From Moniliella sp. 'wahieum' (taxonomy: Eukaryota): a stretch of 64,000 nucleotides of DNA. Numbering within the stretch: position 1 is the first letter of the stretch; every line of letters begins with the position of its first letter. Shown here in pieces: positions 7,988-59,795 of the stretch. A program made the position numbers and the translations under genes. The DNA lies in assembly GCA_003971905.1 (NCBI GenBank), contig RSEE01000022.1:682001-746000 (forward strand), given 5' to 3'. The notes beneath the pieces are model-generated. The model was not told the DNA's origin. It saw nothing but the letters and a program-made list of their open reading frames with translations, and ran no database searches.

Positions 7988-7993
7988 GCAAGG

Positions 7994-10875: not shown

Positions 10876-11699
10876 TCACATGTCACATGTCACATGTCCC
10901 ACGCCGACGCTCTGCCAGCGTCGCTGGTCGCATGGCTGCGCCGTGCCTGGCTGCCTGGCCTGTGCTGTGTCGCCCACGTACCGACTCCAGTGCACCACGG
11001 CAGGACGGATGAGCGCATGGGCCTCCTCGACCTCAGTCACTAGTCACTAGTCATCCAATCCATCAACCCTCGCAGGCCAGAGGGAGAACATCAAACGTCG
11101 AGGGGCGAACGGCGAACGCCGACGTCTGGACCCAAGATGCCGAAGACACGTGATCGTGTGACATGTGACATGTGGCATGGGATCGATGATCAAGCAATCG
11201 ATGATGCTGGGGAGACAGCGCGCATGGGCGGGATCTGCGATCGGAGGATCTGAGATCGCAGTCTGAGATCGGACAGTAGAGCTGGCACAAGCATCCAGAA
11301 GGGGGGCTGTGTGTAGTTGGTGCATGATCACCATGCATCATGCATGATGCAGCCGCGTGGGTACGTAGCGCTCAGGCAAAGCACACAATTGATTTGGGGC
11401 TGGAAGACTGCTGCAGTGGGAGCGTCCCGCGACTAGTGAGCTAGTGCCACTGAGGGTCCTGAGGCCTGAGTGTGACATGCGGAAACAGTGGCCTGGTGGC
11501 TGGTACAGTGACCTGTGACTTGATGCGGTCGAGACCCCCCAGACCCTCCCACTGGCCCACCACTCTATGTCCCACGTCTACGTCCATGTCCACGTCCATG
11601 TCCATGTCCATGTCCAGTGTATTGACCAGCATCTTTTGAGCAGAATTATTAATTAGTCAGAATCCTTGGTCCTAGCGGACTTTCAACGTTCAACGTTGG
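10876..11699. promoter_or_regulatory. Cluster of 7-bp-period TSA-palindrome arrays upstream of the SFP1-like gene
   Basis: (TCACATG)3 10876; (TCACTAG)2TCA 11037; (TGACATG)2 11159; CCA-TGCA-TCA-TGCA-TGA-TGCA 11331; TGAGGCCTGA 11460; (TCAACGT)2 11683; regulatory role is inferred from position only. Confidence 0.5.
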
Positions 11700-14194
11700 C
11701 GCAGGTTTGCGTTCGCTTTCGGCTTCTCGGAACTGCAATTCGGCGCAGCGTGTAAGCGTAAGCCGTAGGTACTAGGTGCGAACGCTGTGAGAAAACTGTA
11801 CGGCACCAGGGCACCAGGGCATCGGGGTTTCTCCTTCCTTCTTTGTGCTTGTACGTTAGTGTGTCGTGGTTAGCGTCCGAGTACAACAATCGATCCAAGA
11901 GCGTTTTGGTATTGAAGTTTGAAGCTTGAAGTACAACCGTTAATGTGGCACATACGTCCTCCTCAAAAACGTCCTTTTCAGTTCGACGAAGCTTGAAGCA
12001 ACTCGCAAAGCAACCTCCCCTCAGATCGAGCTCGGGGATACAATGGGGTGGCAAGAGCAGGAAAGGGACCTGAACGTACTGAACGTGTAATGAGCGGGAG
12101 CGGTGGACGCCTGCACTTTGAAAGCCTAGTTTCGGAACAACTAAGGAACATAGCGAACATTCATATCCAACGTCCAACGTCCAACGTTGAACCTTGAAAC
12201 TTGAAGTTCCAGCCACATGTCGCGGTTATGTTGCCATCGATCGGGAGGTGGCACACCGTGGGAGCAGAATGCGGATGGATGTCGCATCGGGGTGGTGCGT
12301 CGCCAGCAGCCAGCCAGACCAGCCCAGTCATTAATTCGGACCCGCCATATGTTGATTCTACTCCCGGACCCAACAAGTACGCAAGAAGGAAGCAGCTTCC
12401 CGCTGTTCCTCAGTACTCTTATTCTCTGCGCAGCAAACCATTACAGAGTACAAGAGAGTACATTGGTCATGGGCATTATGCGTATTCCGGGGAAGAGTGA
12501 CGAATAAGTGGTAGCCAGGAGGTGTTGACATTTTGGGGGTTCAAGTTGAACGTTGGACGTTTTTTTGAATGTGTTGGACGTTGGCATGTTGACAAAGCCA
12601 GAATCTGACCCTGTGTGGGAATTGGGTTACATGGTGATGTGTGTGGATGTGGTAGAGGGAGGGGAGCGAGGGGAGTGTGTATGGAGTTAGGTCCCAGAGA
12701 CTTAACCTCCGCAATCCCAACACTAACTCTTGTAACACACCCGGAAGCTAACTGAAGAAGTCCTACTAAGTAGCCAACAACGCGGCAACACATTACGTGT
12801 GCATGTTACATTTTGGATCCATTTTAAGAACAAAACCCCCAACCCAAATCCTTTTTCTCTCCCTTTTCTTCTGCGCAGGTACACAAAGGGCCCAAGCGAA
12901 GAGTGCAACTCCGGGACCGAATCACTGTGGTATAAACAATTCCAAGTTGGCAGTGGTCATGCCGGTCATGTGTCTCCCTCCAAAGGGAGAAAGAAAAGGA
13001 TGTCCAAGAAGAATTTTTGGTCATTTTCCGTCTTCTCACATCTCATAGCTCATCCTGGCACACATCCCGCACCTTCCAACTACCTGTGCGGATCCAAACG
13101 GGCAGGGGAAATAGACTGGATGGGGGATGTATAGGTTCAACACATTCAAGTCGAACGTTCGTTGAACCGTGAGGCCTTGAGGCCGGAGGAGGCACAACAC
13201 AGTGACTTGTGGACACCCCTTCCGCACCTGTGTAGTTGACTAACAACTGGGAGAGAATTTATACCGGCACGTGTGGGAGGCGTTTGACTGCTGCGGCTAG
13301 TTTTATACCTCTGCTGCTAGACGTTCAGAGGCTAACGGAGATACCCCCATAACACCCACATCGATTCGTGTTCATATGCGCACGAGAAGCGCAAGCTGTA
13401 GCTATAACCAAGCCATACAATCATCATGCTGGAAGGCGGAAAAGGCAGTTGGGCGGGGAGAGAAAGGTGAGGAGAGGACAGTTAGGAGAGAGGACAGTTA
13501 CACTTAATGAGTCTCATCCCTCTTTTTGAGCCATTTATGCCAAAGGAGGAGGAGAATGGAGGGTGTGGTTCTGAGGAGAGATACTGGAGGCTACGAGAAG
13601 CTGGCAGGACCTTATATAGCCGAGGGTACCGGGGAACAGAGGGAACCTCCGGGTCGATAAGAGGGGTGATGTCTATATCATGCAGACTGGTGTGACGGGG
13701 GCATCCACCCAACACCTATACGTCCTTTTTATACCCACACGTATACACCCCCATCCCACACCTGCATGAAGGCCACCTTCATATACCTTTTGCACACTTC
13801 TGCAGCCCAAACCACAGAAGGAAGGGACCAACACGATTTGGTTGGGGCCATTCGTTAGCCGTTTCTTGGCTGAGTGGAAGATGGATGTAAACTGAATACG
13901 TGGGAAATGGCACCTGACATTATCTCGCGGTCGGAGGATTAAAAATAAAAGCCCTCTGGACGGTCTCTGTGTCTCCCTGTCTATTCGTTCCCTAGCTGGT
14001 TGGTACTATCGAGAGGTGCAAAGAACACAGAGACCAAAGGGCTTATACGGGCGTGTGCATCTTTAGAGTGATGTGTGGGCAGATTTCTGAAAAGCGGCTG
14101 TGCCAACGAAAGAAACAAAAAAGTGGCTCAAAGAGGGGTTCAAAGAGCATGATCATTCCCATATGTATATTGGCCTACAGATCTCGAGTCCACA

Positions 14195-14295
14195 CTGCTC
14201 GTATGAAAAAAAGGCTTTGCATGGCTTTCTGCTCGTATGAAAAAAAGGCTTTGCATGGCTTTCTGCTCGTATGAAAAAAAGGCTTGCATGGCTTT
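14195..14295 (+). repeat. 34-bp minisatellite, 3 copies
   Basis: CTGCTCGTATGAAAAAAAGGCTTTGCATGGCTTT at 14195, 14229 and 14263 (third copy lacks one T); no spacers. Confidence 0.9.
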
Positions 14296-16461: not shown

Positions 16462-18527
16462 GGTACTCTACTACCGTCATGTCGCTTATCCCTCCCCTCG
16501 TTTTCTATCTCAACGCCTACGATCTATGATCGCTGGTGCTCCGTTGGCCCTCGTGACCAAGGTCCCCGGCCTCTTGTCGCACCTGTCACGCGAAACGACT
16601 TGCTCCTTCGGGTGCTGTATTTGTACGCTTCTCCCGCACGGGTCCACGGCCTCTTGCCGCACCCGCCTCATGACACTCTTCCTTTGACCTTGCCGCATCA
16701 TCGTCATTCACCATCGTCGCATCGGTCCACGGCCACTTGCCGCACCTTGCCTTGCCTCCTTGGGGTTCTCTCAACCCCCCCCCCGCCCCAAAGCATTGGG
16801 TCCAATCCACCTCCCTTCCCACCCCCACCTACCCTTTTGGCCGTTCTTCCTTCCCGGCCACCCGTACGCATACACTTACCCGTCCTGTCCTTCTGTACGC
16901 CCCAGCCCACGGCCTCTTGCCGCGCTGGTCATATGCATCACCGATTATTGTTGGCAACCACTGCATGCACTGGTGTGCGTGTCATGTTGGCGAATCTGAT
17001 CATAGTTTTTGTCTGTTTGTTTGTTTTCGTTTTCTCGTCCCGGGCAAGATGGATAGCATGGCACTGAAGCGCGCAAGAAGAGTAGGTGCACAGAGAAATT
17101 GGCATCGTCGGTGAGACCGGTGAGAGTGAGAGTCTCCGTCAGGCTGCAAAATGGTACCGGCTTATTGGATCGATGGGCACACAATGAGAGAAGGGAGGAC
17201 TCAACTGGGTATTAACTGCATGCCTATAAAAGTACAAATGCAGAGGGGGAAGATGTTCATGCGCGTGCTCAAATACTTGATACGCCGTCAGCGTGTCTCT
17301 TGTATGCGGTGGGAAAACTCTCTTTGTGGTATGGCAAAAGAGGCCGCGTGTCGTGGAGCATGATGCATGAAGAGCATCGTAGAAGACCCGCATCAGAAGG
17401 GAAACACATAGTCAATCAGTGACTTCGTCAGAGGCGACTATAGCACCTTCCAGTTGGTTCACTCTCACTGCCTCCCCCTCTTCTCTGTCTATACCTTTCT
17501 CACTTTCTTCCATGCGACTCGGCTCGCATGTTGACCTTTTTCTTTCTCCGAGAGGAACATATACCCCGCCTCTTTCCACTCGATGAATACGACTCATTGT
17601 GAGAGAAGAAGAGAGGACGATAACAGAGGGTAATTCTCTTTTAAGAAAGGAGCCTGCTGTTGGCAGATATCGAGTTGGTGATTGTTTTGCTGTTGATTAT
17701 AGCGACTAGCTAAGCGGCGGAGTCTACGTAGGCAAGGAAAAAATGGTGGTTGTGGTAAAGAATAACATTGTACCCGCGATGGGCCGCCCTACTTTTATAT
17801 ATGTGACGTAGGGAAGAGAAGAGACGGAGACAACCCAAACAAAAGAAGCTAGTCACTATTATAGAGTTACTGCCTTGGCCAAGCTCGTTCTATCTGCCCC
17901 GCATTCGAACCGGAAACTGATACATCGGTTCACGGCCCTGCCTCCCGCCCTTTGTCCCAAAAGTTGGTACTAGAATCGATTCGTTCGGGACTTGGGGGCC
18001 AGTCCCACACGGGTCATACTTCTCCGTGGTGTATCGAGGTGGGGAAAGAGAATGGCATTGGGGCTTATTAGTATATGAGAGCTAGTTCTTTGTGTATAAG
18101 GAGCTCTCCGCCTACAGTACACACTCTATGTTGGTGTAACTACTATAGTTCAAGCTGTTCAAGCCCATATTCCTTCTCAATGTCTTTTTCATCATCGACA
18201 TCATGATGTGCATCTCCTCTCTTCAGGGGCCGTGACTACCACCTCCCGCGTTTCTCTCTAACCCTACCTTCTCTCCTGATCCACAAGTGTTCTGGCTTAT
18301 AGCTCACATAGTACCATTTAGCAAAAATAGAGAGAAACCAACAGTCTCCTCCCCATTCGTGGCCCGCCGCCGCCGCTGGACCAACATAGCCGGAACACTG
18401 ATCATAAATCAATTCCATCCCCATCCAACGTCGACGTTCAACGCGTCAATATCCAATGGAGAGTAACTAACGACTAGTAATGCAGTGGTGCAGCGATGCT
18501 TCCAGATCAGACCTCAGACCTCAGACC

Positions 18528-19817
<1,290 letters not shown>

Positions 19818-20575
19818 GAGAGCAGAAGAAGGAGAGGGTGTGGTGGGGCGCAGGACAGAGACGCGGACGAGCAATGGCGATGGCGGGCGGGGCCGAGCGG
19901 GCGCGGGGGCTTCCCAGTGCAAATGTTCAACTGAAGACAACGACCACGTAAGCGTCGGCTTACGTACCCCGAGGCTAGAGTTTGCTAGGCCAGTCATCCA
20001 TCGCCGGATCATCCATCCATCGCGTCATCTATCCATTGGGGATGCTGCGCTCCTGCCTCCGTCGGCCGTTTCCTCTCCCCCCACTCCCGTATTCTCACCC
20101 CCCACCACTGCCCCGCGTCGCCCCCGCTTGGCGAGCAGGCATTCCCTGTCCGCTGTGTCCGCTTAGTAGTGTTGTGGGGTGGTGTAGTGTACTTCGTACT
20201 TATGGGCTGAAAAGTTAAATTACGCGCTCGCCTCGCTCACGGGGGCCAGGCGGAACGCGCGCCCTCATTCCGCCCTGCAAGGGGCCGCTCAGTGATGTCA
20301 TCTGTGATGCCATCGTCACACGGAAGCCGCCGCCACACTGCCCCGGTGCGGGAGCGTGCCAGTGGGGTGACAGCCGCGCTGGCTCGCGCCACACCCACGC
20401 GTGACGCGTGACGTTCCCCGGCTTCAGTCCTGGCGTCGCGTCTGGCCGCCGCGTTTTTTTTTGCCTCTGCTCCACCACCACCACCACCACCACCCTCAGC
20501 ACCACCACCGCCACCGCCAGCCCACGCCGACGTGCCCTGCTTGCTGCGCCACGCTCCCCCTCGACGCTGTCCAGA

Positions 20576-25280: not shown

Positions 25281-26439
25281 AAGACCCGGTCGCGATTCTA
25301 GCTGCGCCAACCGCGGGCTGATCAATGAAGGCTGGAACGATTATAGTATTGCTTCTCAGGTCAGAACGCTTGCGTTTTGGTACTGCCACATATTATTGGA
25401 TCGAGCACCACGATGCACCATGGGGAAAATGGCGAAGCTGAATGGCGAATTAATCAATGTCCAACGTCAAGGGACTGCGTTGGTTGAGAACAAGCTGGCA
25501 CAGCCTAGTGCATAATGCATAAGAACTAATAGCTATGTTGGCTCAAGCTTCAAGGATAGTAGACCTCATCGACTGATCGATCGCCTTGGACAAGGCTCGA
25601 GACGCTCGTCCGCGCGAAGGTGTCGTGAAGCTTGTTGGCTTGAAATTGACATACTGATGGGCTCGATTGGCGATCATTAATCATTAATTAGTCGATCATT
25701 AATCGCAATTAATCCAGTCGATCACCAAGCGCGAATATCCAACACGCGTCGCACGCACGGATCGCCTCAAACAGCCCCTTGATAAGTCCCTCTTCTCAGG
25801 GGCTTCTGGCTCACATGTCACACTTGTCGAAAAAGCAAAACAAGGAATCGCGAAAACATACCAATGATCAATAGATCATGCACTGCGCACTTAAGCACTT
25901 GCCCCTCCTGCACTGACGCTGAAGCGTCAGGGGCTTATCGACATCGTGGTCCAGACAATCGTTGCACCGATGGTGGTAAAACCCACAGATTGGGCTAGAG
26001 AGAGAAGGTTGGGCCAGAAAAACATAGAGAGAGGTAAGGCCTAAGGCCGGTAATCGCAGCAGTGGCAGGAGCAGCAGACATCCCGCAAACCCACAGCCTA
26101 CAGTTGGAGCGCAGTCGCCTCTACTCCTTTCGGCCTATTGGCCCCTTGCAGCTGGCTTCACACACACACGGACGTTGCTCAGGGCGGTCGATCGCAGCTT
26201 TTACAAAAAAAAGAGATAGAGAGAGATCGAGGGGTACGCTTCCACCACCAGCACTTCCCTCTCCCTCTCAGCTTCCACTTCTCGCCACCACCTCACCATT
26301 TTCCCTTCCATTCGTTTCATCCACGCTCCCAGTCTACCTCTTCATCCCGCTTCATCTCTGTCTTCGATATACCCTCTGCATCCCCCCTCCCAGTCGTCCG
26401 TGCGCCCGCTACACCACGGCATTTCATCCATTTGCCTTC

Positions 26440-30989: not shown

Positions 30990-31714
30990 AGGCGGCTGCA
31001 GGTGTGGCAAGGCTGCACATGTACCAGCTTGGGCGGTAGTAAAACGCGCCTGAACCCTTCTCGGGGTTCAGGGACGGGAAGTGGCACAGCGGAGGACAAA
31101 CAGTGCCCGAGTTGGAGCTGTAGGCTGAAACTGGAGTTTGCTTATGGGGATCCACGCGGAGGGACTAAACTTGGTTTCGGCCTGGCATGAGGAGGGCAAA
31201 GCGATTTGGTTGGCTGAGAAGCTGAGAGCGGGATACGGGAGCTGGAGGGCGAGGTCGAAGAGAGGGGGGAGCAACTAAGATGAAGAGAAGCTGTACCTGT
31301 ACTGGGCTGATCACACAATTGGCGAGGACCGGAGAGGAAGACCCCAAAATGGACCGTGGGGGAACCCTACCAACCATGACTTTTACAGACAGGGACTAAA
31401 ATGGAAGCAAAGCAATAGACGAAGAACGGGAGGCAGGGAAGAAGAGGGTGAGAAGGTTGCCAGGAGGACAGCCTAGAAAGAGTGAAAGTAAACAGGCACG
31501 CGAGGCGACTATAATTTGGCAACTATACTGACACAGTTCGTCAGATGATACCATTGTGGCCACCAACGGTTCTGCTTGGGCAACACAGGGCACCTATATT
31601 GTCACGCCGATCCGTAGAACTGGCGGTCGTGTTGGTGTTTGCGCTGACCACCGCGAGCTCGGATCAGGTCCGATCTGACCCATGACCAACCTGGGAACTG
31701 GGTTAGAAAGGTGA
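30990..31714. repeat. Degenerate dispersed repeat (LTR-like), abutted by the element starting at 31715
   Basis: 30991-31110 similar to 31862-31980 (GGC(G/A)GCTGCAGGTGTGGCAAGGCTGC...GGGACGGGAAG); 31340-31712 similar to 36700-37097 (AATGGACCGTGG, GACAGGGACTAAAA, CTATATTGTC, GGGTTAG(A/G)AAGG). Confidence 0.65.
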
Positions 31715-32618
31715 TGTCACGGGCCGGGCCCCGCCAGGGGACACGCCCGGGGTTTGGGGGTTCGATCCCTTAGGCGACGGTAGGTCGACTCACGGCAGTT
31801 TCGGGCTTGGGCTGGTTGGTGAATCCGAGCGGAGCTAGGGACGAGGTGAGGTCTTTGGTGAGGCAGCTGCAGGTGTGGCAAGGCTGCGTCTGCACCGGCT
31901 TGGGCCGTAGTAACATGACTGAAGCTTCCGGGACTTAGGGACGGGAAGAAGCAGAGGTGGACAAACATTGCCTCAACTGACACTGGATAGAGGCTAGAAA
32001 TCGACGCGGCCGAATGAGGGCTGGCGCGACGGTGGACTGACGGATTGCTGGAGGACGAGAGGTTGGAGGAGGAGTCGCGACCTAACAAGGAGGAGACTGT
32101 CTGTACTGGATCAATTGGCTAGAAAACGGGCAGGAGTCGGACAGGATAGACGGGAAAGGACGAGGGGGATGACGAGAGGATGGCGAGAGGATGACGAAAG
32201 AATGACGATAATGGCAGGTGGGGAAAAGGATCCCCATGAACCACAGGTGTACAGGCAAGATCAAAAGGGAGACGGATGCAAGAGGGCGTGCAGAAAGGAA
32301 GACACGTCAAAAGCGGGGTTGATCCCCGCAGGCGCGACCGAGAAAGGAAAAGGAAACGGCAACGGGGCGACAGACGTCGCAACGGCACTGGAAGCTCGGC
32401 GGCCTTTTATTTAGGCCACCCCACTTAGTTGGACTTGGGCGGGGAGCGACTGTTGTTGCGCGGATGCACGCGGCCCTTCGGACCACGGTATCTAATTTAA
32501 CCAACCATCATCACACATGGTTGTTGGCCTGGGGAACATGCTCTACTGGACATGTGCGGAGCAGGCGGGCCTTAGCTTGGATCGGACGGCATCTCGGGTT
32601 CTCAGCAGCCCGTGACCA
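31715..32618. mobile_element. Probable LTR (~900 bp) with inverted termini
   Basis: Begins TGTCACGGGC, ends GCCCGTGAC(C)A; last ~130 bp homologous to the end of the solo LTR at 44071-44506; no TSD visible. Confidence 0.6.
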
Positions 32619-35600
32619 AGCCAGGGTGACTCTGATGCCCCCGCCATTCGTCTAAAGCATGAGAGCAAAGAAAATCATACCCAAAATCCTTTCCTTGAAG
32701 TTTCTGCCTGCGCTCGAATATCCTCTTGACAATCATAGTGGCACTGGACCCACTCATTGTTATGACCATTGAGGGAAAAAATGTCTTCCTGCTAAGTGCT
32801 CTGTGGCACTTGTCGTTCATTTGTCGTCATTCAGTAAACCGATGGCACTCCTTCTCCCAGAATTCCACAAACTTGTAGCTATCCATTTGTTTATCACCTC
32901 TGGAATGCAGTCCTGACTTCCTTCGTCACCGAGTCCTAAATGTGGTCTACCTCCTTGCTCTCACCATCTGCCATTGCTCCTATGGTCCAAAACCTACTAC
33001 TACTGACCGATGCTGGGCGAGCCTGTGAACGCGTATCGATATACCCTCATTAATCCCCCAGACCCGCGCGGCATACGCTGGGTACGTTGGCCGGCGATCA
33101 GGAGAGCCGGGTTCTCTTTCAAGGCCCTCAAAGGTGAGCATTTGCAATGGTTGGCGGGCCAACAGAGAGCCTCCTAATTTGTTTCCGTTTCCTAATAGCC
33201 TTAGTCTGAACAACAGCAACCGCTGTGCAGTGACATTTTCAGTGCCATCACTGTCTCTTTTTCCGATCATAAGTACGTCGCTACCCCGTTGTCGCCCAGC
33301 AGGTCATCTGACTTTTTTCACTCATCGCCCCGCAAGCTATCTAATGGGTTGGACGAGTGGATGAGAGAATTTCTAGGGCATTGCGGACACGCATCTTCCG
33401 TAAGATAACCCTGAAATTTGTACCGCCTGGCGTGCGACCCGTGCACAACTCACCCACATCTCCGTCAATCGTAGTAACCTGGGAAAATAACAGACGAGGA
33501 GGATGCACGGGACAACGAAGGCACTGCAGTCAACCTCTTTGACACAGCGGGCACAGATGGCGAGGACGACGACCGCACAGACGACACTTGAGACTAAAGA
33601 GTGATTTGGCGCCTACACATTCCAAAGACCTCTCAATGGCAAGCCCCAAGTTCATTTGACCCATCGCAATGCAAAAAGTACCCTCGAAGACGATTGCACT
33701 GCATTCGATGGTGCTAGAATGAGTAGTAGTATAAAATGTAATACCAATAGTAACCCAGGGAGAGCGAGCATAGGAGGATCAGATTCGTCAGATACGTCGC
33801 CCAGGGGCACATCATAACGTTTCTGACGTTCAAGGGGGTGACGTCGGCGACATAACTGACCTGCAGGGGATGACATCGAGGACATCTCTGACGTTCAGGG
33901 TGGTGACATAGACGACGTCACTGACCTGCAGCGGCTCACAGAATTGCCTCACCCACGGCAAATTACTCCTCTGACATTTTGAAGGTATTTTATATGAAAA
34001 ACATAAATGATGTCTTTGGTGATCCGCTGTGTTTATCATGGAGTGGGGAAAATGTACGCCCATGGATAAGCCGTACACTAGTTTACTATACATCCCCCGG
34101 TTGGTATGGCGGGAACTTTGGCATGATTGAAGAGGATGTATATGCCTTGCGAAGAGGAGCATGATTGCTCGGACGAAGGCGGGCCGGGGAACTTGATTTA
34201 GTGTAACGCTCTGTTCGCTTCCGCTTTTCTCTCTCAGCTCTAGAATGTTATCAGCCGCTAAGGTTTTTGGCGTTGCTTGCTAAAGCGAAACTGTGGAGCT
34301 TTCAGTCAAAAAGTCTTCAGTTCCAGCGGGAAAAGGCGAACAGGCCAGGGGCGTTTGTCATCGCAGGAGGGATACGTATGGAAAGCAATTATACCCGGCG
34401 AGTATGGGACCATAACAATACTTCCCGAGGTCATTGGAGTGTGCGCCTTTGGGATTGCAAGAAACAATATTACTAACAACCGGGCGGTTCAGCGCGGATT
34501 CGATCGGGCGGGAAATATTTTCTCTTCTTGGATGATGTGCCGTTTATCTTTTCGCCTGCCAGTTCGATTCACTCGGCTGAGGCTCACGGAGCCATATCTC
34601 TGCTTACCTTCCCTATTGACGTTGGCTTAGCCGATCGCTGCCAATCCCCCGGATACGTCACGCGCACTGCCAGTGCGGCCAATTTCTTGATCCCGACGAT
34701 AGCTCAACTTTGCAATGAGGGTATCATTGTTTCTCCTCTAACCTTGCATGAAGGGACCAAAAGGGAGCCCGCCCTACGCTCCGCGGTTACGCTGGTTGCA
34801 TGCGCCCAGTGGTACTTCTGCAGCGATGATCTGGTTCTTCTTCTTCTTCTGCTGAAGAGGGAGTATTACCCTTAGGATGTATGCAACGCAAGTTTCACTC
34901 AGCTGCACTATTCTGATTGGATGGCCACTAGGCCAGAAGGATATGCTCCGGTGCGAAGAGAACGTGCTCGCAAACAGTCGCCGCTTGTTGGGTTCTGCAG
35001 AGACTTGTTTGGAAAGACAAACGCTCCAATGTAGTGTTCGTACACAGCAATTCACACAACTGAATGTCGACATGGCATATGAGGTTACTTAATAGAAGCT
35101 CAAATATTGCGACAAGCTAGTACCTGTGCAACAGAATAGCGTCAGTTTCAGCAGAGCACACCCTTGCCGCAGGCTCTGCATACAACGGCATGTATGTACA
35201 AGCATATACAATTGCCTCGCGTCTTTACTTGACGAGGCCGTTATGCATAGGTTAATTGGGCTTTGCAACAAATTAACCCGTAAGCCTGGTTAAGTTACTC
35301 GCGAAACACACCATCATCCTAACTGCTCACTTGCTCGTTTCGAACCCTCTATCATACACTCAGTTGCCCTTCCCTTCATTGCCTTGCGCATCTCATACTT
35401 CTAGTTCTACGTTTGCAGCCATCAAGTGATTTTGATGTTTTTAAATCACGTAACGACCCCCGGGTCAACTGCTTGACTTGCATTCCATGCCCCATGGCTC
35501 CCATGTCGTAACGTGCTATTATGCCAGAATTGAAATATACCGTCCTGTCCCGTTTTGCTATTTAGCACCCGGAATGAGCTGCTTGGATTGGTTAAACAGG

Positions 35601-36574
35601 CTGAACCGGACAAATTGCCAAGTGTCAGGCCGAACTCCAGTTCTTTTTTCCCTTTGGTTATTACAACTTGAGGATGTCGTCCCAACAAGACAATAATATT
35701 TTTGTTTGGGCACTTAAAAAAAGTAACCAACTCAATGGAGATTCTTCACCATTGATACTTTTCCGGTTTCCCACTTGGTACCTTCAGTTCAGAGATGGAT
35801 GGCGGTCGTCAGAGGGTTCTGAACTGCCAACAATCCACCTATTTTCCTACCGGGGAGTGGCCGAGTCAAGCAGCATGGGTCAGTGTAGGCGCCGCGTCTG
35901 TTTTGGTCCCAGCCTTGCTCTGTATATGTGATGTGACTACACTATAAGGATGTGGAGGCAAGTGTTTGCTGTTTGCTACTCGCACTGATACTAACTCTCA
36001 GTGATATGAGCACGTTGAGTTCAAGGATTGTTTCTCTTGTGGCAGAATATTACATTATCAAAGCCTCTGTATCTTCTTCAGTCATTCACTGCGAAATGGT
36101 TCATTTCGTTGTATATACCGGTATTTGATTGTATTCAAGCAGCATCGAATGACTTGGGCCATCAGTTCTTTTTTTCTCTACCCTCTTTGTTCTTCTGCGC
36201 GACATCTATATTTGGAGCCCTTTCCATCGTATTTGCTCCCGGCTATGTAAACCATCGCTTGGGCGGCGGTAGCGTGTCTGAAGCTTTCTTGCTCAGGGAC
36301 GGGAAGGAGCAGCGGAGGGCCTATGCTGTTGGACTGAGGGTGGATTGGGAATGGGGGCGGCGGGGCTGTACGCAGGATCGCACCCGGTTGAACTGGGCTG
36401 GACTTGGGCTGGAAGCTGAGAAACTGTGAGCTGAATGTTGCGCGGATGAATTGCGTGCTACACTGGTGGCATGAGGCCAGTGGTACTGCAGCAGTAGTGT
36501 TCTTATTTTATTCTTCTTCTTCTTCCTTCCTGCGAATGGAAGCATAGCTCTCTTGGGAGTTAGTATGCAGTGAA

Positions 36575-37153
36575 TGTTATGACTTTGCCACCACCATCCC
36601 CGCAGTTAGCTGCACAATACTGACGACGGGTGCTGGAGGAGCAACCATGAGGAGTTGCCTGTAGTGGGTTGATCAATTGGCATGGAGAACAGGGGGAGAC
36701 GCCAATGGACCGTGGTGGAAAGCCACGAACCATTGCTGACAGGGACTAAAAGGAAAACAAGGCAACAGAGAAAGAACGGGGAACAGGGGAAAATAGGCAG
36801 ACAGCTGCCGCACGGGGGCAACCTAGAAAGGTAAGGTAAACAGGCGTGGGGCGACTAGTGTCGCAACGACAATGGAGACAGGAGGAACCATGAAACTGGG
36901 GTTCCCAATTCACTGCGACTATATTGTCGCTCGGATACGTAGACTGGTAATCACCCCAGTGGCGGTCGAGCCAGCCGCGATGGAACTGAATTGAATCTGA
37001 GGGCGCGCACTATTATTGTGGAGGGACGGCCCTCAGTTGAGATCGGATCAGTTAGAATCTGACTCAATGACCACAATCTAAGACGGGGTTAGGAAGGCGA
37101 AGGGCACACGTAGGCTCTGTCGGGCTTTTGCAAGCCCGTCTTCGCCCGTGACA
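36575..37153. mobile_element. LTR-like element related to 30990-31714
   Basis: Shares blocks with 31340-31712 and ends GCCCGTGACA (37144-37153); left end (TGTTATG) tentative. Confidence 0.5.
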
Positions 37154-39037
37154 ATCGAGAATACGCCAGAGGCCATGCATCAGCCAGCCACAGGCTCTTC
37201 ATGAGATTGGAGCACTCACTGTAGGACATTGAAGGACGACCAGGTCAGGATGCTTGGAGACGACGATGTGGTCAATGTACCCTCCACGGTCTGTCCACTC
37301 TGGCGGGTGCAGAAATGGCACAATAGGCGTGTCCGTGGGAGAGCGCGTGGAGTCCGCGGGTAGATCGGGGGGGGGGGGGGGGGGGGCAGCTCGCCCAGTC
37401 CGCCACACCTCGGCAATGACCTCTTTGGTGTCGTACCGAATCCGTCAAGAATTGAATCAAATCTTTGACGTGAACCGGGCAGTGAATTTAGGTAGCGGCA
37501 TCCGCGAAGGGGAGGCCTTTCGTTCGCATGAGGCACACCGCTGTGAAAGCAAACTCTATAGTGCCTCCTTGTTGGCCGCAACGTCGACGAATAAAAGCGC
37601 ACGTGAGTTCTGAAGCAGAGCGTTCGTCAACTGCGTGGACCTGGTGCGCGAGTGCAGTCGTGGGCGTGCCCTCCGGGGCAAGCTGATGGGAAACAGCACC
37701 TGGGTGGATAACTTCGGGTACAGGGTGACCCTGCAGGGCGACCCTGTTGAGCGGGCGCAGCATTGGCGGCATCCATTAGAGACACGGCTTCGGTTCGCGC
37801 GTTAGGACAGGTTGCCGAAGGGTGGAGGCTAGGTTATATCGAAACCAGAGGACTCCACCTCTCTATCTACGAGTTGAGCCCGCGAACAATCATTAAGGCG
37901 GCCCCCGCAGCAGCTCTTGGACCCCCTTCAACGGATCCTCATGAACCATACTTACGCATTTACCACTACGCTATCGAGCCGCGATAGGAGCAGCTGTAGG
38001 ATCACAGAGTCTCCGCTGCGAAAGCACAAACCAAAAGGGTAGAAGGCGAACAAGGCAGACATCTCCTCCACTATTACTATAGGTTGCATGCTGGACTAGT
38101 ATATCAACGCCTCTGGCGTTCCAGTGCTCGACTATATACCCAACAGAGAGAGTTTTGTCCTCGTCGCTGGTGGTTCATACACCTGCTTCACAGTTTGATG
38201 CGGCATTCCTATTGAGACTCTTCATCCTCGTTGGTAGCGTCCAAAACAGATGCGTGGGACGGGCGAATGGTCCGCGTAATGGGCCTATGCCGTCTCGCGC
38301 CCTCCCAGCGGTATGCTGACGGGGCAGCACCCACAGCAGCCCGGCGGTGTTAAGCTATCACTTGAGCCAGTGTGTCGGCTTAGAGCTGCTCTGTGCTCGC
38401 TTGTCCCAGGCGCAATAAATCGAGGTTTCCGTGGCCCTTTGGAGGGATTTTCAATGCGTACTTCACCAGGACATGCTTGAGATGCGCAACGTGCCGAATA
38501 GTACCGATTCAAACCAAGATTTGGTGGTTGATGCTGATGGCTTTTGAAGGTAACATATCCTGTCAGGCAATGCATGCGCGGCTAGCCACGAGCAACCATT
38601 GAATCGCCAAATGCTTTGCGGAGGGGGCGTACTGGGCGTTCTTTTGGCCCGGATATCAGCCAAGTATTGGGCGATCAGATTCGGCGCACCGGGGGGGCGA
38701 GGGAATTGCACCCTCTTGTTTCCTTGCCATTGAGGTAAGGCGAAACCAGAAGTCAAGCAGTGTTGGATTACTTCTTTGCGCAAAAGGACGTGTGAATAAT
38801 GTCACGGCTGGTGGGGTTGTGTCTGTTTAACACGATTTTGGAAACGGGAGACTCTCTCCAAGACATCAATAGTGATGCCCTGGTATCAAGCTGGTCCCTC
38901 ATCTGTTGTGTCTTGGCCCTTGCGTGCCCGGTGGATTCTTGAGGTGACTGATGTAGATGGGACCCAAGCGTAGCGGGGGGGCTCTTTGGACAGCACACAC
39001 ATCGATGATACCTGGGAGTCCGGATGGCGCTTGAGGG

Positions 39038-39245
39038 TGATGCAATCGCACTGGTGGTGGTGGTGGTGGTGGTCTCATCCAACCAGAGCAACACCTCCAG
39101 AGGAACAGCAAGCAGCGAGTCGCCACCGGGGGCTCAGCTGCGGAACAAGGAAAAACAGGAGAGAAAACAACAGAACTCCCAGGCCTGAGGAGGAACTGAA
39201 GGGACACATTAGCCAAAGCACGAGCCACCCGATGGCTCAACATGA
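39038..39245 (+). repeat. ~200-bp dispersed repeat, copy 1 (inverted copy at 58008-58205)
   Basis: TCGCACTGGTGGTGG...GCGAGTCGCCACC...TGCGGAACAAGGAAAAACAGGAGAG...CCAAAGCACGAGCCACCCGA matches the reverse complement of 58008-58205. Confidence 0.85.
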
Positions 39246-39559
39246 ACTGTCTGTCCGTTTACCTATTTCTCCCCATGCCAGGCAGTATGCGGGTCTTGTT
39301 TTGCAGGGCTGTGCGCTCGCTGAGCGTCCACCCGGAGCCCGAAGGCTGAGATTACCGTACGGTTACCAGTGACCGGTGAACAGTTAACGTTAAACGTACT
39401 TTAACATGCTTCGTGCGAGCGACCCTGCCTCGCACGGGCTTCAGCCGCCTCGCGTCGCAGGGCAGCACAGCATGCTCTCCAGCACCATGCTTCTGTTTTG
39501 GGGGTGATGCAGGATGCAGGATGATCGATGATCGCTGAAACAGCGGCCCCAGGCCTCAA

Positions 39560-48597: not shown

Positions 48598-48799
48598 AAC
48601 GCATTGCATCGGGTTGGTTCTTCCCTCCGTACTTGCTTGCATACACACGCACACACACTTGTTATGTACACTACTTCAACACCACATTGGACCATCTATA
48701 TCTTGTTTTGGCAGGCTCCACGGAGCCCATGCTGGTGTTAGAGTAGAAGGAGGGAAAGTATAAACAGTATGGGTACACTATAATAAAACAAGAGTCCGT

Positions 48800-49332: not shown

Positions 49333-52300
49333 TGCAGGGGGGGAGGAGAGGTGATGTTCGTGCTGGGTGCCACTGCACAGAAAGCCACGGCGCTCGCAGG
49401 AAAAGCAGCGGTAGGTGGTGGATGCGCCTCGGCTGGAGTACACTGGATGGGCCCGAGGTGGGTTATTGTCGACCGTGGGGGCGAGGGGCAGGTCGCAGGG
49501 GGCGTGTTGGCGCAGCAAGGAGGCGGTCTGGTGTGTGCGCTGCATGATGCCAGCGCTCGGGCGGTGGTGGTTGGGAGGCAGAAGTGGCTAGGGGCCTACG
49601 AGCAGTACAGATGAATGGCGGACGGAAGCGGGGATGAGAGGGCCCAAGGGCGCGGCAGCGAGAGGTGCGATATGGTCTGGATAACCCACAGCTGACAGAT
49701 CACGGTGATCGGACGGGTGAGGGTGTGGCGGTCGCTTCGGCTTCGTGGGCGCTGCGCAGCACGGGGAGCAGTGTACGCTCGGAAAGGCGCGATGGGGAAC
49801 CGGCAATGGCCAGTGGCCAGCTGAGTGTGGCGGGGGCGGGGGCGTGCAACCGGCACGCGGTGACTACGGGACTTGCGGGCAAGTGTCGCTCTTGGCCGGA
49901 CGGAGGTGTCGAGGCCGGAGAGGGGCAGGGGTGCGCTGCGGATGGATGACTGGCTCATCGATCATCGATCATGTGTATTGCCGACGGGCGGGCCAGCGCT
50001 AAAAGGAAATCTTCCGGAGCTGGGTTTTGGTGGTTCAGCTTCGGCGCTGAGCCGCCCAGGTGAGCGCTGAGAAGTTCAACGCATTCAGCAGGCTGCGTTC
50101 GCTCTCGCTCTACTCCGCTGCCAGCCCGGTGAATTCACCGGTGCCCCGTGGTTCGGAGCAGCGGGGAGCGCGGGAGAGCAGGGGAGAGCGGCCCCTCCGA
50201 CTCGGTGGAATCTGGGATGTGACGCTGACGCCCAGGCCAAGATTACGATTCTGGCCACTGGCCAGCCACTTGGAGCTTGGCTAGCCACTAGCAGCTGGCT
50301 TTTTATGCACCGACAACGGCTCAACGGGTCGTCAATCGCCGATGCCCGAATTAATGACCGATGACGGTCATCGTCATCCGACATCCAGTCATCGAGTCAT
50401 CAGGCTTCAAGCAACAAGCTTCAAGTCTTCGGTTTTCAGCAAGCAATCTGTCACGATTGCACGGTAATCGAGAACCGATCTAGGCCTAATCATTCATCAA
50501 CGACCCTTGATTGCATCAGTCAGCTACCCAGCACCGAGCGACCAACAGCAACCGGCCTCCCCCACAGGTGTGTGTTCCAATTTCGGTCGCCATCCCCTCC
50601 GACATGGCACGCGGAGCCCCGTGGCGCGTGGCGGGGCCTGGCTGGCCCCAGTTTGGCCGTCTGCGTGACCTTGTGTGGCCAGGCCTTGCGCACGGCCCAG
50701 GCACACACACACGGCTCAGGAGGGTAACCGGTAAGCTGTAAGAAAGCTTTGATATGCCAGGTGTCAGATGTCAGAAACCAGCCTGAGGCCTGGGCCTGAT
50801 GGTTCCCTTTGGGGCCGCGCACACGACGCTCAAAACGCCAAGCGCTCTCAGGGTATAGTCAGTACAGTCACTAGTCACTAGTCAGTACTCAGTACGCTCA
50901 CTGCTCCAGTCTGCTCCAGTACTTCTCTGGTGGTGTGGGGGAACTCCGTGGACTTGCTTCGAGTTGCTACGTGCTCTTTTACTTCCCTACAAACAACGGG
51001 ATGCAATGGTGCCCCAGATCTGAGCGATGATCGTTGATCGATGATTCATTATCTCTATGCTCGATGGTCAACAAAATCTCAGTGTCAGCTGCATCTCGCG
51101 TATCATAATGATAACTCAGTCCTCAGGCGCCTCATCAGCCTGCCTCACAAGCCCCCAGACCCCAGGCCTCAGGGGGGACTCCAGGGGTACTCAGGCTTGA
51201 GGACGGACTCAGTTATAAAGCTTTGACAAGTCGTTGTGTCACATGTAATAGCTAGCAACCCGCGCCGGTGATCGGGACAACAGGTCACTTCGGCCCGCTT
51301 GCGGCCTCCCGCTTCCGTATCGATATCTTCCGGGTTGTATAATAAGAAGTAACATGTAAGCCAACTGACCTGCCCACCCCCGGCAGTCCCATCAGAGATC
51401 CCACCCTTCTCAGATCCCCCCCTTCTCAGACTCATATCTCACCGGTCACCGCGCTAAGCCCGTCGGGCCATTTCACCTTCGCTAGCTCAGAAGGGGGCCA
51501 GACCTTATTAGACCTTAGACCTTAGGATGGCCACGTGTAACTCATCAGTATATGCTTCAGTACAGTAAAGTATGCCAGGAAACCCCTATCACATATCACA
51601 TGGGACGCCGTTTTCTATACTGAGTTTTGGTCGCTACTATACTGCGCATCGTACCATGCATACCGCGTAACACACAACGGGCTGTTAGTTGGTGGGCATT
51701 TTGGTGACGGACCCATACAGCGCAAGAATGCGGCACAGCTGAGCGCTGGTATGTGCATGAGCACCCTCCAGACCGTCGCTACGCGTTACGTGTTACGCGT
51801 TACGTCCGTCGCCACAAAAGATGGGAACAGAGCGGGTCTGGAGTACGCGTTCTCCGTCTGTGGTCCGCAAGTATTTTGATTACCGGTATAGTGTTCCCGG
51901 GACACACCCGCACTGCCCTGCCCCTCCTTCTGTCATGCATCATGGGCGGGCGGCGACCTGGAACCCCATCCCGGGTGTAGGGGTACTTTCCCCTGAAGGA
52001 GAGGGTCCCCCTCACGGTTTACCGAGCTTGAAGCTTGAATGCTATTGGCGGATCCGAACGAACAGAGCCTAGAGACGAGAGGTGACCGGTGAGGCGTCAC
52101 GATTGGGGCGTCGGCTGGGGTGGCAAGGCAAAGTAAGGCTGTACGTGTTAAGGAGGGAGAGAAGAAGATGGAGACGATAACAGAGTGGGTACGTGGGCTG
52201 GCCAAGTGACCATATGGTCTGTACGAGATCACCATAATCAGACAGTGTATATGCACCGGAACGAGCAGGGCTATAGCCCGCATGTAGACGCAGAATCTTG

Positions 52301-53814
52301 AACGGTTTTGGCTAGGAGGTCGGCCCATACCAAGACTGAAGGTGGGATAGGCCCTGTCCTGTCCCCGAACAACTCAACTATTGTAGGATGGTAGCGAGAT
52401 CCGTACAGAGGAGATCGTAAACTAGACGGAGATCGACGATACTAGTAAGGATGCCGAGACGAAAGGATTCAGGAAGATTCAGAGGTGGTTGCGGAAGCAG
52501 GTCGGTGGGACTGCGGGTGAACTGGGTAGTAACGCGGGTATTGCCTGGTGGGTCAAAAGGATGTATAGTATTCGCAAGGAGTTGTTGGTACAAAATGACC
52601 CGCTCTAGGGGGAAGAATATAGAACAAAAGGCGTACAGTATACCGATATGGGACCGTTAAGGCACCCAGATACAATGTTGAAGGAAGAGGAAGGAACAAA
52701 GGCGAATGATTAATGACTGTCAACAAGAGCACAAACCAAATAGGGAAAGGTCTGGGAAATTAAAGATCCCCACGTTCAGAGTTGGGACAGCAACTTACTA
52801 GTAAAACACGAAAAAGGCCCAAAATATAATGGGCAGGTTCTCCGCCCCTTCCCGCAGCAGCAACGTCAAAAGCACCAGGGGAGAACCTCACAAAATGAGA
52901 ACGAGACACTCGGATCAGGTCGATCAAGAAACAGACATAATACACTGACATCTCGATTCGGCAGCTCAACGTTGAGCTGATTTGCTTTGAAGACCAAAGA
53001 CGAAATACTTGAAGTAGGATAAAATCACAGTTGAGTTGTTGGGACTTGAAGCCCAACACTCGCATAGACCTCCTCAGCCGTACGGAAGGGCCTCGATCTT
53101 GGTCGCACAGATCATAGGAAACATGCTCCAATTAGGCTCAACGGAGTAGATGAGTCGTTTAAATAGAGGCGAGCCACAGACTGTAGTGACCCATACTACC
53201 TTCCCTCCTCTCCTTCTTGGCTGTTCCTGCTACTATTTATATAGTATAGTTGGTGTGTGGGCGATTTGGCCACAAGCCAGCAAGCAAGCGGCAGCGCCCG
53301 AGGCAGAGAGAAAGAAGGATATAGGGTGTAGTACGAATCACTGATGTGACGATCCGTGTTCATCTGTCGCCATTTACACGTGTGCGCCAATACATCAACT
53401 TCATCAACACAGGCGAATGGAAGAACAATCACATCGGGCACCCTTCTGATTCAGACGTACTACTACTAAATATACTGCTACCACTGATGTATAATCCCAC
53501 GTTGATCCAATTTGTGCAACAACGGCCGCGCCTAGACCGAAGCCACCGGCATGTCCCCAATTACATCAGAGGCAGGGGGCGAAACAGACACGGTTGAGGA
53601 CTGTGGGACTCAGGTACCAACTGGCTATATACGGACTGGATGAAGAGTGGATAGATAGAATGCATGGAGAGTGCAAGATGGTTGCTGGCATATGGCTGTA
53701 GATTGGATCAATACCCAGGATACTCGATGGGCCACGATGCACGCGGCTCGACGATGAATAGATCAATCGTCATCGCGTCATCTCAGCCGTCCTTCAACTC
53801 CTTTTTCTTCAAGT

Positions 53815-54212
53815 TCTTCTCTTCTGCTTCTGCTTCTGCTTCTGCTTCTGCTTCTGCTTCTGCTTCTGCTGCTTCTGCTTCTGCTTCTGCTTCTGCTTCT
53901 GCTTCTGCTTCTGCTTCTGCTTCTGCTTCTGCTTCTGCTTCTGCTTCTGCTTCTGCTTCTGCTTCTGCTTCTGCTTCTGCTTCTGCTTGCTTCTGCTTCT
54001 TCTGCTTCTGCTTCTGCTTCTGCTTCTGCTTCTGCTTCTGCTTCTGCTTCTGCTTCTGCTTCTGCTTCTGCTTTGCTTCTGCTTTGCTTCTGCTTCTGCT
54101 TCTGCTTCTGCTTCTGCTTCTGCTTCTGCTTCTGCTTCTGCTTCTGCTTTGCTTCTGCTTCTGCTTCTGCTTCTGCTTCTGCTTCTGCTTCTGCTTCTGC
54201 TTCTGCTTCTGC
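53815..54212 (+). repeat. ~400-bp (GCTTCT)n hexanucleotide microsatellite
   Basis: Near-perfect ttctgc array of roughly 65 units with a few slips. Confidence 0.98.
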
Positions 54213-54403
54213 TTTTTCTCGTCTCGCATGGTACCTTGTTTCGCATGGTACCTTGCACCCTTAACCCGTAAAGTACTTCTACTGTGACAGTTCCGTGACT
54301 TGCCAGTGACTAGTGTGGTTCTCCTCCACACTCACGTCCACACCAATCTCTACCACCTTGTCCTCACCTACTTCCCTCCTCACCTCCTCACCTCCTCACC
54401 TCC

Positions 54404-56896: not shown

Positions 56897-58007
56897 GGCG
56901 GAGCACGCGCAGGGCAACGCGAGAGCCAGCGAGGATGGTCGATGGGGGCGCAGCCGAACAGCGTGGTGGCGGGCCGCATCCAAGCGCGCTGCAATCGAGC
57001 GCGCGCACCAGCCGCCCGCGGGGTAGGCCTTAGGCTTATGGTGCCCGCAGCAATGCGTGGCGCGGGGTGCGCCGCAGCTCCGACGGCCTGACAGCTGCGG
57101 CGCACCCCGCCCACGGCGCCCCCCCGGCACAGCGCCACCCTCGCTCGTTCGCGGCGTTTCGTTCAAATTTCATGCCCCCAGGGCCACAGGGGCAACCCTA
57201 GCACCCCCACACATCGCCGCCAGCCAGCGCCCCAAGCAAAAAAACTATATAACACAGCCCTTGCAGCACGCGCACCGGTAAGGCTACCCCAGTCCGAGCA
57301 CGCTCCTGTTGGGACGAGCCGTCAATGACGTTCCTTTCTCTTGGCCAAGCCTTCTACGCGCTCACCTCGCCTTCCTCCCCCCGCCCCCAGGTTGGTCTAA
57401 CCGACAACGCCGCCTCCTTCTGGGAGTAGATGAGCTGCCTGCTGCCCAACAAGGCGTGAGCATTGGGTCAGCCAAATTAAATCCGACAGTTCTGGTGGAC
57501 AGCCCAAACACCAGAGAGCGATCCCCAGTCCTACGTGTCTGTGCGCCAATCGTCGCCTCTTGCCCAGGTGAATCGGTTGCCACCGCGTGGTCTCACCCAA
57601 TTGTCAATATTTCCTTTGCGACGATAGATATAGTCGTCCCGTGCTGGGGTTTATCTTTCCTTTCTATGGTTGCCCGTGCGGCAACGCCCTGTTCTCCCTG
57701 CATGTCCCATCAGTTCTTCCTCTATTGTGTTGTTTCCCTATCTATAAGCAATGGTTCGTAGTTTTCCTCCACGGTCCATTGGCGTCCTCCTCTCTGTTCT
57801 CGCCAATTGATCAACCCAGTACATAGATGACTTCTCTCTCTTATCAGGTTTTGCTCCTCCGCTCCTCGACCTCGCCTCCAGCATGGTATCCCGCTTTTAG
57901 CTTCTCAGCCAGCCAAGTCGCATGTGCCCCCCTCGCGCCACGTCGAAACCAATGTTACCTGATGGTTATGAGCCAGAAGTGGTCGTAGTCTGTGGGCATT
58001 CGATAAC

Positions 58008-58205
58008 ATGCTCTTGTTGAGCCTCGGGTGGCTCGTGCTTTGGCCAATGTCCCTTCAGCTCCTCCCAGGCCTGAGTTCCGTGTTTTCGCTCTCCTGTTTT
58101 TTCCTTGTTCCGCATCTTACCCCCTGGTGGCGACTCGCTCCTTGATTCCTCTGTAGGCGTTGCTGGTTGGCTTAGACCACCACCACCACCAGTGCGATGC
58201 ATCAT
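58008..58205 (-). repeat. ~200-bp dispersed repeat, copy 2 (inverted relative to 39038-39245)
   Basis: Direct sequence comparison with copy 1. Confidence 0.85.
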
Positions 58206-58442
58206 GCATCAGTCTCATCAGCTCCCCTGCCCAGCGTTTCCCTAGACTTAGTAACTGCCACCATTTACTCTGAACTATTAGCCCGACTGTTGATGAATAG
58301 CTCGCCAATCGAGCTCAAGCAAGAGCTTCAAGCTTCGCTTGAAGAGTCACTCTTCCGTGCGCTATACCAGGCTATACCCATGCCCCTGCCATAGCAGGCT
58401 ATATAGCGTGCGAGCCGAATAGGGACTGTAGCCAAGCTCAAG

Positions 58443-59795
58443 TGACTAGTGACTAGCTAGTGACTAGTGACTAGTGACTGTGACTCTTTAATGACTAGTT
58501 GACTAGTGACAAGGTGGCAAGCTAGTGACATGCTAGTGACACACACGCACGTGCCATCATGCGTTCCAGTCACGGTCACATATGCGGGGGTGAAATTGAA
58601 TATTGAATATTGACGATCGATGTAGAAGACACGGATGACACCAATGAACATTGGCTGACTATGCACGAAAGGGCTTCTTCCGTGTATAACGAGGGCGAAC
58701 GCCGTGAAAGGAGAGGGAAAATGATGGATGACGCTCAGTTGAGCGATGAGCCTCATCGCTGAGCCTCGATGCTCGCATGCCACACATGCATGTCACATGC
58801 CACACCAACGCCAAGGCGTGGCGCTGTCTTTCTTTTTCTCTCTTTTGCGAATGGTAAGAACGAAGTAGTGGTGCAGTGACCAGGTGAACCCCAATGTTGA
58901 GTTCAACTTGAACGCTCACCTACTCAACAAGGCAACTGCCTGCGAATGCGGTACAGTAGTAACTAGTAACAACTTTTTGAGGCAACAGCTCCGTACGACA
59001 AGGGCCATGTGACTAGTGCCAGGTGCCACCACGCGCCACGGGCCCACTTCGACGTTCGACGATCAAGTTGATCGAGGATCGAGGATCGATATCGAGGATC
59101 CCCGCATGCCGCGGCCGAGCCACACTTGCTTGTGCCTCCCGGCCCGCATCGGGTAAATGCAAGGAATTGCGCTGAAAACAGGAAGCTGGGCGAGGCAAGA
59201 CACCGCCGACATCCGACCCCGCTCGGTTGTTGCAACATCATGCATCATGCATCATTGATCGACCATCTGCATCAGTACATGAGTATACTGAGACTCAGTT
59301 GAGTACCCTGCTCGTTCGATTCCATCCTTCACTGCCTTCATCCACTTCATCGACGTGAACGTTGAACGTTGAACTTCAACCTGGGCTCTCTGCCCGTCCA
59401 TCTGGGAAGAGAGAAGACAGGGCAGATTGGTCGCATCATGCATCATGCGTCACGCGTCATGCGAATGCCCTGTGCATGTGATTTCGAACCCCTCTCTCCT
59501 CCATCGCCCCTTCCCCCCACTGCCACCGGCCACACGCCTGTGCAGCTGTGCCATCGCTACTGTTTCCGATTATCGAGTACCCGCAGAAGCACCACCGCCA
59601 CCCCTGCCCCTCCCCCCCGCACATGCCAGCCCGCGTTTCACTTTTGCAACCGCCTGTGTGTGCTCGCGGGGACTAGCTCTACTAGGGCAATGCGAACGAC
59701 TAGTTGCTACAGAACAAGTCACTAGTGGTGCGACTAGATGACTAGTGACCAGTGACTAGTGACTAGCTTGACTAGTAGTGATGGTGACTAGTGAC
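58443..59795. promoter_or_regulatory. Dense cluster of 7-bp-period TSA-palindrome arrays in the divergent Zn2Cys6/Ecl1 intergenic region
   Basis: (TGACTAG)n 58443-58478 and 59719-59795; (TGAATAT)2TGA 58597; (TCATGCA)2TCA 59238; (TGAACGT)2TGA 59356; function inferred from position. Confidence 0.5.

Follow-up and report, generated by a model that had tools for sequence, protein, structure and literature searches.

Palindromic 7-bp repeat units in intergenic DNA of Moniliella sp. 'wahieum' are most likely excision footprints of a cut-and-paste transposon

We analyzed a 64,000-nucleotide stretch of the Moniliella sp. 'wahieum' genome (contig RSEE01000022.1, positions 682,001 to 746,000, here G000:C22:682001-746000; referred to below as the window) whose intergenic DNA carries a recurrent short unit, in which two copies of a trimer T-N-A enclose a 4-bp palindromic core. 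These units are most likely the excision footprints of a cut-and-paste transposon that duplicates 7 bases at targets of the form ab-TNA-cd (mostly TSA), with repeated events at the same place building arrays. The agent is likely a transposon family with terminal inverted repeats (TIRs) ending in CT-CACTGAG and with an EnSpm/Tnp2-like remnant, or relatives of this family.

The assembly comprises 69.5 Mb in 223 contigs. Outside the window we sampled 57 ten-kb pieces (570 kb) at fixed offsets of contigs C1-C16, which together with the window amount to 634 kb; genome-wide figures rest on the 570-kb sample and three pattern counts, and dinucleotide shuffles within 500-bp blocks served as the null for motif counts. 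The initial annotation had described the pattern as T(C/G)A-NNNN-T(C/G)A with a palindromic core. TSA-N4-TSA occurs 131 times in the window, and 55 of these cores are palindromic where 1 in 16 is expected, which bears out the proposed over-representation of palindromic cores at this spacing; at spacings of 2 and 6 the window is without palindrome excess (12 of 50 and 2 of 75). The pattern is thus real, but its frame is T-N-A. TAA/TTA pairs are enriched as strongly as TCA/TGA pairs, both in the window (same-trimer counts of 9 versus 0.3 shuffled and 51 versus 1.9, respectively) and in 120 kb of other contigs (17 versus 0.7 and 71 versus 4.0), which rules out TSA as a fixed spacer. The unit definition was widened to T-N-A with the same N on both sides, any 4-bp palindrome and a period of 7. 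Among units as such, a middle base S is more frequent than W (404 versus 103 in 570 kb). Strong enrichment over shuffled DNA was found for T-N-A alone, the remaining self-complementary frames (ANT, CNG, GNC) being enriched at most 2.3-fold in the window and at most 2.1-fold elsewhere; in a ranking of central trimers the four TNA trimers come first (135, 120, 38 and 32; next 29). The two trimers had also been taken for a TCA/TGA half-site pair, but their middle bases are the same and not complementary (identical in 60 window units, shuffled 2.2; differing in 9, shuffled 7.1), and true 10-bp palindromes show hardly any excess in the window (9 versus 7.1) and a modest one elsewhere (103 versus 44.7).

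Units are widespread. The 570 kb contain 507 units versus 19.9 in shuffled DNA, with at least one unit in 56 of the 57 pieces, and TSACTAGTSACTAGTSA has 660 matches genome-wide versus 2 for the reversed control. The density is about 0.9 units per kb; extrapolation from large contigs gives roughly 59,000 overlapping units across both genome copies (see below). All 16 possible cores are represented in the 570 kb, and AATT, one of the three cores previously listed as absent (with TATA and GATC), is present in the window at 57163. As side observations from the 634 kb, TNA pairs are also in excess at periods of 9 (606 versus 374) and 12 (551 versus 386), an excess larger than modelled junctions account for, and the junction described below occurs in low counts at CAT, CCA, GAT and GGT centres.

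The core is dictated by its flank: it consists of the flanking dinucleotide and its own reverse complement. For a target ab-TNA-cd, the dominant unit is abTNA-b'a'ab-TNAcd or abTNA-cdd'c'-TNAcd (primes mark complementary bases). At non-palindromic targets in the 634 kb, the filler between the target copies is the reverse complement of the adjacent flank in 325 cases versus 2.8 in shuffled DNA, and control fillers (the plain reverse, the complement or a copy of the flank) yield 5, 0 and 4 cases in place of 325. The core is therefore not freely interchangeable, as had been supposed; among 53 units aligned between the two genome copies, not one core was swapped at an otherwise conserved unit. The leading flank dinucleotides are TG, TC, AG and AC, W-S combinations that also occur in the duplications around the elements described below. 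Intact 7-bp duplications with 0, 1 or 2 palindromic bases were found 37, 52 and 30 times (shuffled 1.4, 0.8 and 0.6) and a one-base-short junction 125 times (shuffled 10.4), these sister classes overlapping in part. In its unambiguous form an odd-centred, Ac-type class is not enriched (2 versus 4.6), and other offset classes (44 and 14) overlap the flush classes. Such letters might also arise by template switching or slippage at short palindromes, without any dedicated enzyme, as a fold-back of two to three bases yields the same product. A slippage copy of 7 bases, however, needs at least four periodic flank bases in total, whereas in 233 of 364 single units (570 kb) the 7-bp period continues on one side only, with a mode of exactly 2 extra bases, which is unlike slippage.

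A second copy of the window region is present in the same assembly on C20, with 88-94% identity and partly inverted. Window positions 1-12132 are collinear with it and 21063-64000 inverted (compared with G000:C20:483011-558000), and copy pairs about 88-94% alike also exist between C4 and C16 and between C8 and C23. Judged by these pairs, the assembly is that of a hybrid or an unphased diploid, and since it holds two genome copies, individual events can be read. Alignments of the window with C20 and of C4 with C16 contained 25 seven-bp gaps, of which 18 were kept after removal of 7 whose flanks were unclean. No outgroup polarises these indels. Nine of the 18 clean indels match the footprint exactly. 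Four of them (window 5854, 11644 and 11919, and one on C16) are not explicable as duplications of adjacent bases; the other five are simple duplications too, as slippage would also produce. Two more of the 18 are perfect duplications of an nnTNAnn 7-mer. The sites in the window are given below; with the exception of 11331, which opens with CCA and has its scored unit at 11338, every position named in the initial annotation holds a unit.

5854..5867: GA TCA + TC + GA TCA GA, left-side palindromic filler at target GA-TCA-GA; target once in the other copy.
7318..7861: three single units (7318 TAA/CCGG, 7712 TGA/AGCT, 7852 TGA/TGCA) between the 3' ends of an S10-domain gene (plus strand) and a C2H2 gene (minus strand).
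10876..10892: TCA/CATG array.
11037..11053: TCA/CTAG array; other copy without the same form.
11157..11170: palindromic target TG-TGA-CA in two copies; once in the other copy, a 7-bp gain.
11331..11347: imperfect TGCA array with trimers CCA, TCA and TGA.
11460..11469: TGA/GGCC unit, common to both copies.
11644..11657: AA TTA + TT + AA TTA GT, TWA frame; AA-TTA-GT once in the other copy, not a simple duplication.
11683..11692: TCA/ACGT unit, common to both copies.
11764..11777 (indel at 11766): footprint geometry, read by eye, at an off-consensus TAG-centred target; 7-bp gain versus the other copy.
11918..11931 (indel at 11919): TT TGA AG + CT + TGA AG, right-side filler; target once in the other copy.
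17361..20411: single units TGA/TGCA (17361) and TGA/CGCG (20402).
25513..26044: five units (25513, 25543, 25674, 25811, 26035) upstream of a minus-strand NUDIX-like gene.
32506..32525: empty transposon site with a single target CA-TCA-TC; the next 13 nt are in part an inversion of the left flank.
39370..39531: units TGA/CCGG (39370) and TGA/TCGA (39522).
49955..52716: dense field of 12 clusters (49955, 50061, 50725, 50868, 51035, 51350, 51439, 51793, 51933, 52029, 52083, 52707).
50762..50775: TG-TCA-GA in a perfect 7-bp duplication that has no filler; single in the other copy.
50866..50893: mixed-core array AG TCA CTAG TCA CTAG TCA GTAC TCA GT.
57163..57172: TCA/AATT unit, absent from the earlier list.
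58202..59794: 10 clusters (58202, 58443, 58500, 58597, 58960, 59238, 59356, 59436, 59739, 59785) upstream of an Ecl1-like frame.
63046..63070: units TCA/AGCT and TGA/GTAC.

Arrays are informative because three TNA copies with two different cores require at least two events at one site. In the array at 50866..50893, one target AG-TCA-GT yields both cores, CTAG from left fillers and GTAC from a right filler, and in 14 of 20 mixed-core arrays both outer flanks are as predicted from one original target, for which the chance is about 1 in 256 each. Arrays with two cores are homogeneous in 52 and mixed in 13 cases, which fits a ratio of 3:1 (p 0.39); this expectation is our own reasoning, according to which three in four repeat hits on a footprint would produce a homogeneous array. 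Re-insertion is thus sufficient to explain the arrays. Slippage can lengthen homogeneous arrays and may act beside re-insertion in their growth, but neither mixed-core arrays nor one-sided 12-nt runs are slippage products. In addition, strong enrichment is confined to the T-N-A frame and a period of 7, with the TNA trimers leading the ranking, and this length and centre equal the target duplication of an actual element (see below). Template switching or slippage is therefore disfavoured as the source of the units, and we consider it very improbable.

A different explanation, one of the two put forward initially, is a selected promoter code, in which the units would be a structural element or would bind a dimeric factor through TGA/TCA half-sites, with exchangeable palindromic cores. 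Apart from the strong enrichment, the distribution of the units lends this some appeal: most clusters lie upstream of genes (according to a gene map drawn roughly from Pfam matches), dense fields are found upstream of a C2H2 gene and of the Ecl1-like frame, and none of the 47 clusters formed by the 60 window units falls within the 3,229 Pfam-matched bases, where 2.4 clusters would be expected at uniform density. However, a gain of 7 bp shifts the reading frame, which alone suffices to explain the absence of units from exons. Transposons can target open chromatin, and the dense upstream fields fit such targeting as well as they fit function. The location claim also holds only in part, as units occur in convergent gaps between gene 3' ends (7318, 7712 and 7852; probably also 17361). 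Selection should moreover be visible as conservation, but 23 of 53 aligned units (43%) are identical in the other copy versus 700 of 1,382 neighbouring 10-mers (51%), two samples that overlap and are not independent. Among the remaining aligned units 22 differ by an indel and 8 by a substitution, and 7 more units are unaligned. Together with the tie of the core to its flank, the equal enrichment of TWA frames and the gain of units in one copy only, this renders a promoter code very improbable, although some arrays may have been co-opted later.

A candidate for the inserted element was found in the other genome copy. At the position corresponding to window 32506-32512 this copy (G000:C20:546811-547188) carries a miniature inverted-repeat transposable element (MITE) of 378 bp with TIRs and the 7-mer CA-TCA-TC on both sides; whether the element was lost from the window at 32506-32525 is equivocal. 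Its relatives include five copies of 4.85-4.98 kb, which are 96-98% alike, decayed and frameshifted. Matching 7-bp duplications with TSA at positions 3-5 flank 5 of 6 two-ended copies. The termini are CTCAC..GTGAG, the TIR end reads CT-CACTGAG, and CACTG thus lies two bases inside. TNAnn, in every case TSA, precedes 18 of 27 genome-wide matches to the 13-base terminus (1.7 expected), corresponding to about 13 independent sites; since the reversed terminus has 11 matches, several of the other 9 may be due to chance. A de novo TIR search of the DNA examined recovered only one element with a 7-bp TNA-centred duplication. Several observations stand beside this. A one-ended copy is located at the same place on C23 and C8 (L098:604 and L105:395), the C8 version having an additional CT between target and terminus. 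A second MITE family is represented by an unrelated 441-bp element with long TIRs and the 5-bp duplication CTAGG (L059:4484-4924). The other copy of the window also has about 300 extra bases at 25507-25559 and 257 at 58964, each adjoining a window unit; these larger insertions were rejected as transposons as neither TIR nor duplication was seen.

The coding potential of the long copies may point to a Tnp2-like transposase. On the minus strand of G000:C34 (L107:3262-5900) there is a nearly intact Tnp2-like gene, consisting of a PF02992 match and a 543-codon frame, and frameshift-aware alignment of the five 4.9-kb copies with the 330 residues after the PF02992 match gave scores of 64-84, all five alignments ending at the same residue. 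A shuffle null was computed for two of the long copies, and their scores exceeded all 100 shuffles (maximum 53-55); the opposite strand scored 42. Two motifs were noted by eye in the remnant, CxxC and, farther on, an H-rich one, which lie in different frames. We read the long copies as carrying an EnSpm/Tnp2-like remnant whose family membership is unsettled. A second Tnp2-like gene, whose frame drew a blank in homologue searches, is located on C17, and C62 carries a relative. The surroundings of the C17 and C34 genes yielded no TIRs, and all three are candidates for tamed or end-less transposases. The hAT dimerisation domain PF05699 has zero matches in the genome, a weak negative as its control was silent too, and the same holds for PF13960, with zero matches and a silent control.

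The initial annotation had also considered a hairpin process that builds promoter DNA. The idea of a hairpin process is supported, and it can be narrowed to transposon excision. Insertion leaves abTNAcd on both sides, as seen at the surviving copies. Upon excision each flank would be sealed as a flush hairpin, which a host nuclease would open 2 nt 3' of the tip, so that four self-complementary nucleotides would remain as an overhang; Pso2 and Artemis cut hairpins at this distance from the apex (PMC3299998). The overhangs would be cdd'c' and b'a'ab, the recessed strand of each end beginning at TNA. If one overhang is kept and the other lost, so that end joining ligates one strand and replaces the other overhang, exactly the dominant product observed would result, abTNA-cdd'c'-TNAcd or abTNA-b'a'ab-TNAcd, with a net gain of 7 bp. 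Later hits at the same place would add units, and hits from opposite sides would give mixed cores. The variation of the core would follow from its origin as a copy of the bases next to the target.

Several findings weigh against excision by this family. The junction at the empty MITE site, with its partly inverted 13 nt, is of an atypical type. The 7-mers at the two ends of one full-length copy (L095, G000:C11:228241-233089) differ, although both are nnTSAnn, which suggests a rearrangement between two copies. Surviving elements are mostly inserted at S-W-TSA-W-S, a target narrower than that of the footprints, so that further families are needed, and some 20 surviving ends, all decayed, face the extrapolated number of units at a ratio in the thousands. 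No clean pair of full site and footprint was found, and for the one flank that was searched no second copy turned up. Seven of the 18 clean indels, among them the TAG-centred one at 11766, fit neither the footprint nor the perfect-duplication class exactly, and 112 of the 364 single units do have at least four periodic flank bases, for which reason slippage may contribute to the units. The protein remnant had zero Pfam matches in 46 frames, phmmer and word-index searches were blank, Atlas returned weak leads (DUF4218 11%, DUF6830 17%, low recognition), and single pieces gave no significant match to the Tnp2-like frame in ordinary pairwise alignment (best 11 of 300 shuffles). Finally, the same products would be expected from scarring without a donor, in which nnTNAnn sites are cut at a 7-nt stagger, by a transposase or by a hairpin-forming nuclease that has been domesticated, and are repaired through hairpins without any insertion. 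Such an activity would account for tens of thousands of units beside about 20 ends, and it might be encoded by the Tnp2-like genes of C17 and C34, near which no TIRs were detected, or by the relative on C62. Yet there are real elements that share the duplication length and the target, and a duplication needs an inserted end, since target duplication arises at strand transfer and gap fill. An enzyme of this kind was also not found in the literature searched, and we regard donor-free scarring as improbable.

With respect to its other contents, the window carries eukaryotic, intron-split genes (Pfam profile search); the best named fungal matches of an ornithine aminotransferase exon are from Malassezia (72-75%), and other basidiomycetes, none of the named relatives being close. 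Upstream of the aminotransferase gene, at 14195-14295, a 34-bp unit is present in three near-perfect copies. The stretch at 31100-39300 is AT-richer, poorly conserved and devoid of units, and pieces of it match several places in the other copy; it is probably younger, repeat-derived DNA and includes a 33-bp tandem repeat at 33823-33931. A (CTTCTG)n array of 67 copies at 53816-54214 exceeds its counterpart in the other genome copy by about 300 bases.

Taken further, these results would mean that an undescribed lineage of the CMCT clade (EnSpm/CACTA, Plavaka, ESTA and Transib) with a 7-bp TNA duplication wrote about 60,000 hairpin-repair scars, that footprints and not slippage are the main source of 7-bp intergenic repeats, and that some of the dense arrays upstream of regulatory genes may have been co-opted as promoter elements or that a tamed enzyme may now cut without a donor. 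This wider picture is tentative, and we judge it slightly less probable than its opposite. A literature search whose coverage left out most subscription journals yielded no account of footprint arrays across a genome or of an EnSpm-like family with a 7-bp duplication, and nothing that verified the Ustilago heptamer arrays named in the initial annotation. If the wider picture is true, V(D)J-like coding joints would be preserved throughout the genome of one fungal lineage as a fossil record. The usual way to study excision footprints is at single reporter loci; here they would form a class that can be counted genome-wide, at about 0.9 per kb, and from whose junction spectrum one can read how hairpins are formed and opened. 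The genome might thus serve as a test bed for how much non-coding DNA is written by vanished transposons and for fungal repair of the Pso2/Artemis type, and the candidate element would raise the upper end of the duplication range stated for the CMCT clade (2-5 bp) to 7 bp. There is a warning here as well: a motif grammar that is strong, palindromic and enriched at promoters may be the scar of a mutational process instead of a code.

Among known systems, the CMCT clade resembles the element in several respects: a TIR element, a remnant that aligns with a Tnp2-like frame, and subterminal short repeats; CACTG lies two bases inside the terminus, and, by eye, a C(2)C motif sits after the putative second D and before the last E, where the clade has C(2)C and H(3-4)H motifs (PMC12730594). 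The clade, however, has 2-5 bp duplications and mostly CA..TG termini (PMC12730594), whereas the element has a 7-bp duplication, CT..AG termini and a TNA-centred target. A 7-bp duplication is shared with hAT7 of rust fungi (PMC12730594), but the remnant here is Tnp2-like. As the element differs from the CMCT clade in duplication length and termini and no hAT protein was found, we file it in neither. Ac/Ds, a hAT system, likewise adds palindromic bases when the donor site is repaired, and these have as their centre the complement of the base that adjoins the element (PMC5873905); the Ac centre is odd, in contrast to our data, in which the odd-centred class is unenriched in its unambiguous form. 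Transib and RAG make 5-bp duplications instead of 7 bp, and the scars of V(D)J recombination differ from those described here, which are fixed in the genome by tens of thousands with one junction dominant. RAG hairpins are flush. Flanking-DNA hairpins are described for V(D)J recombination and Hermes and presumed for Transib (PMC1131882), and V(D)J joints show even-centred palindromic additions of 1-2 bases, in line with hairpins opened 2 nt beyond the tip (PMC3299998). By analogy, the element appears to work like Transib and RAG at its flank.

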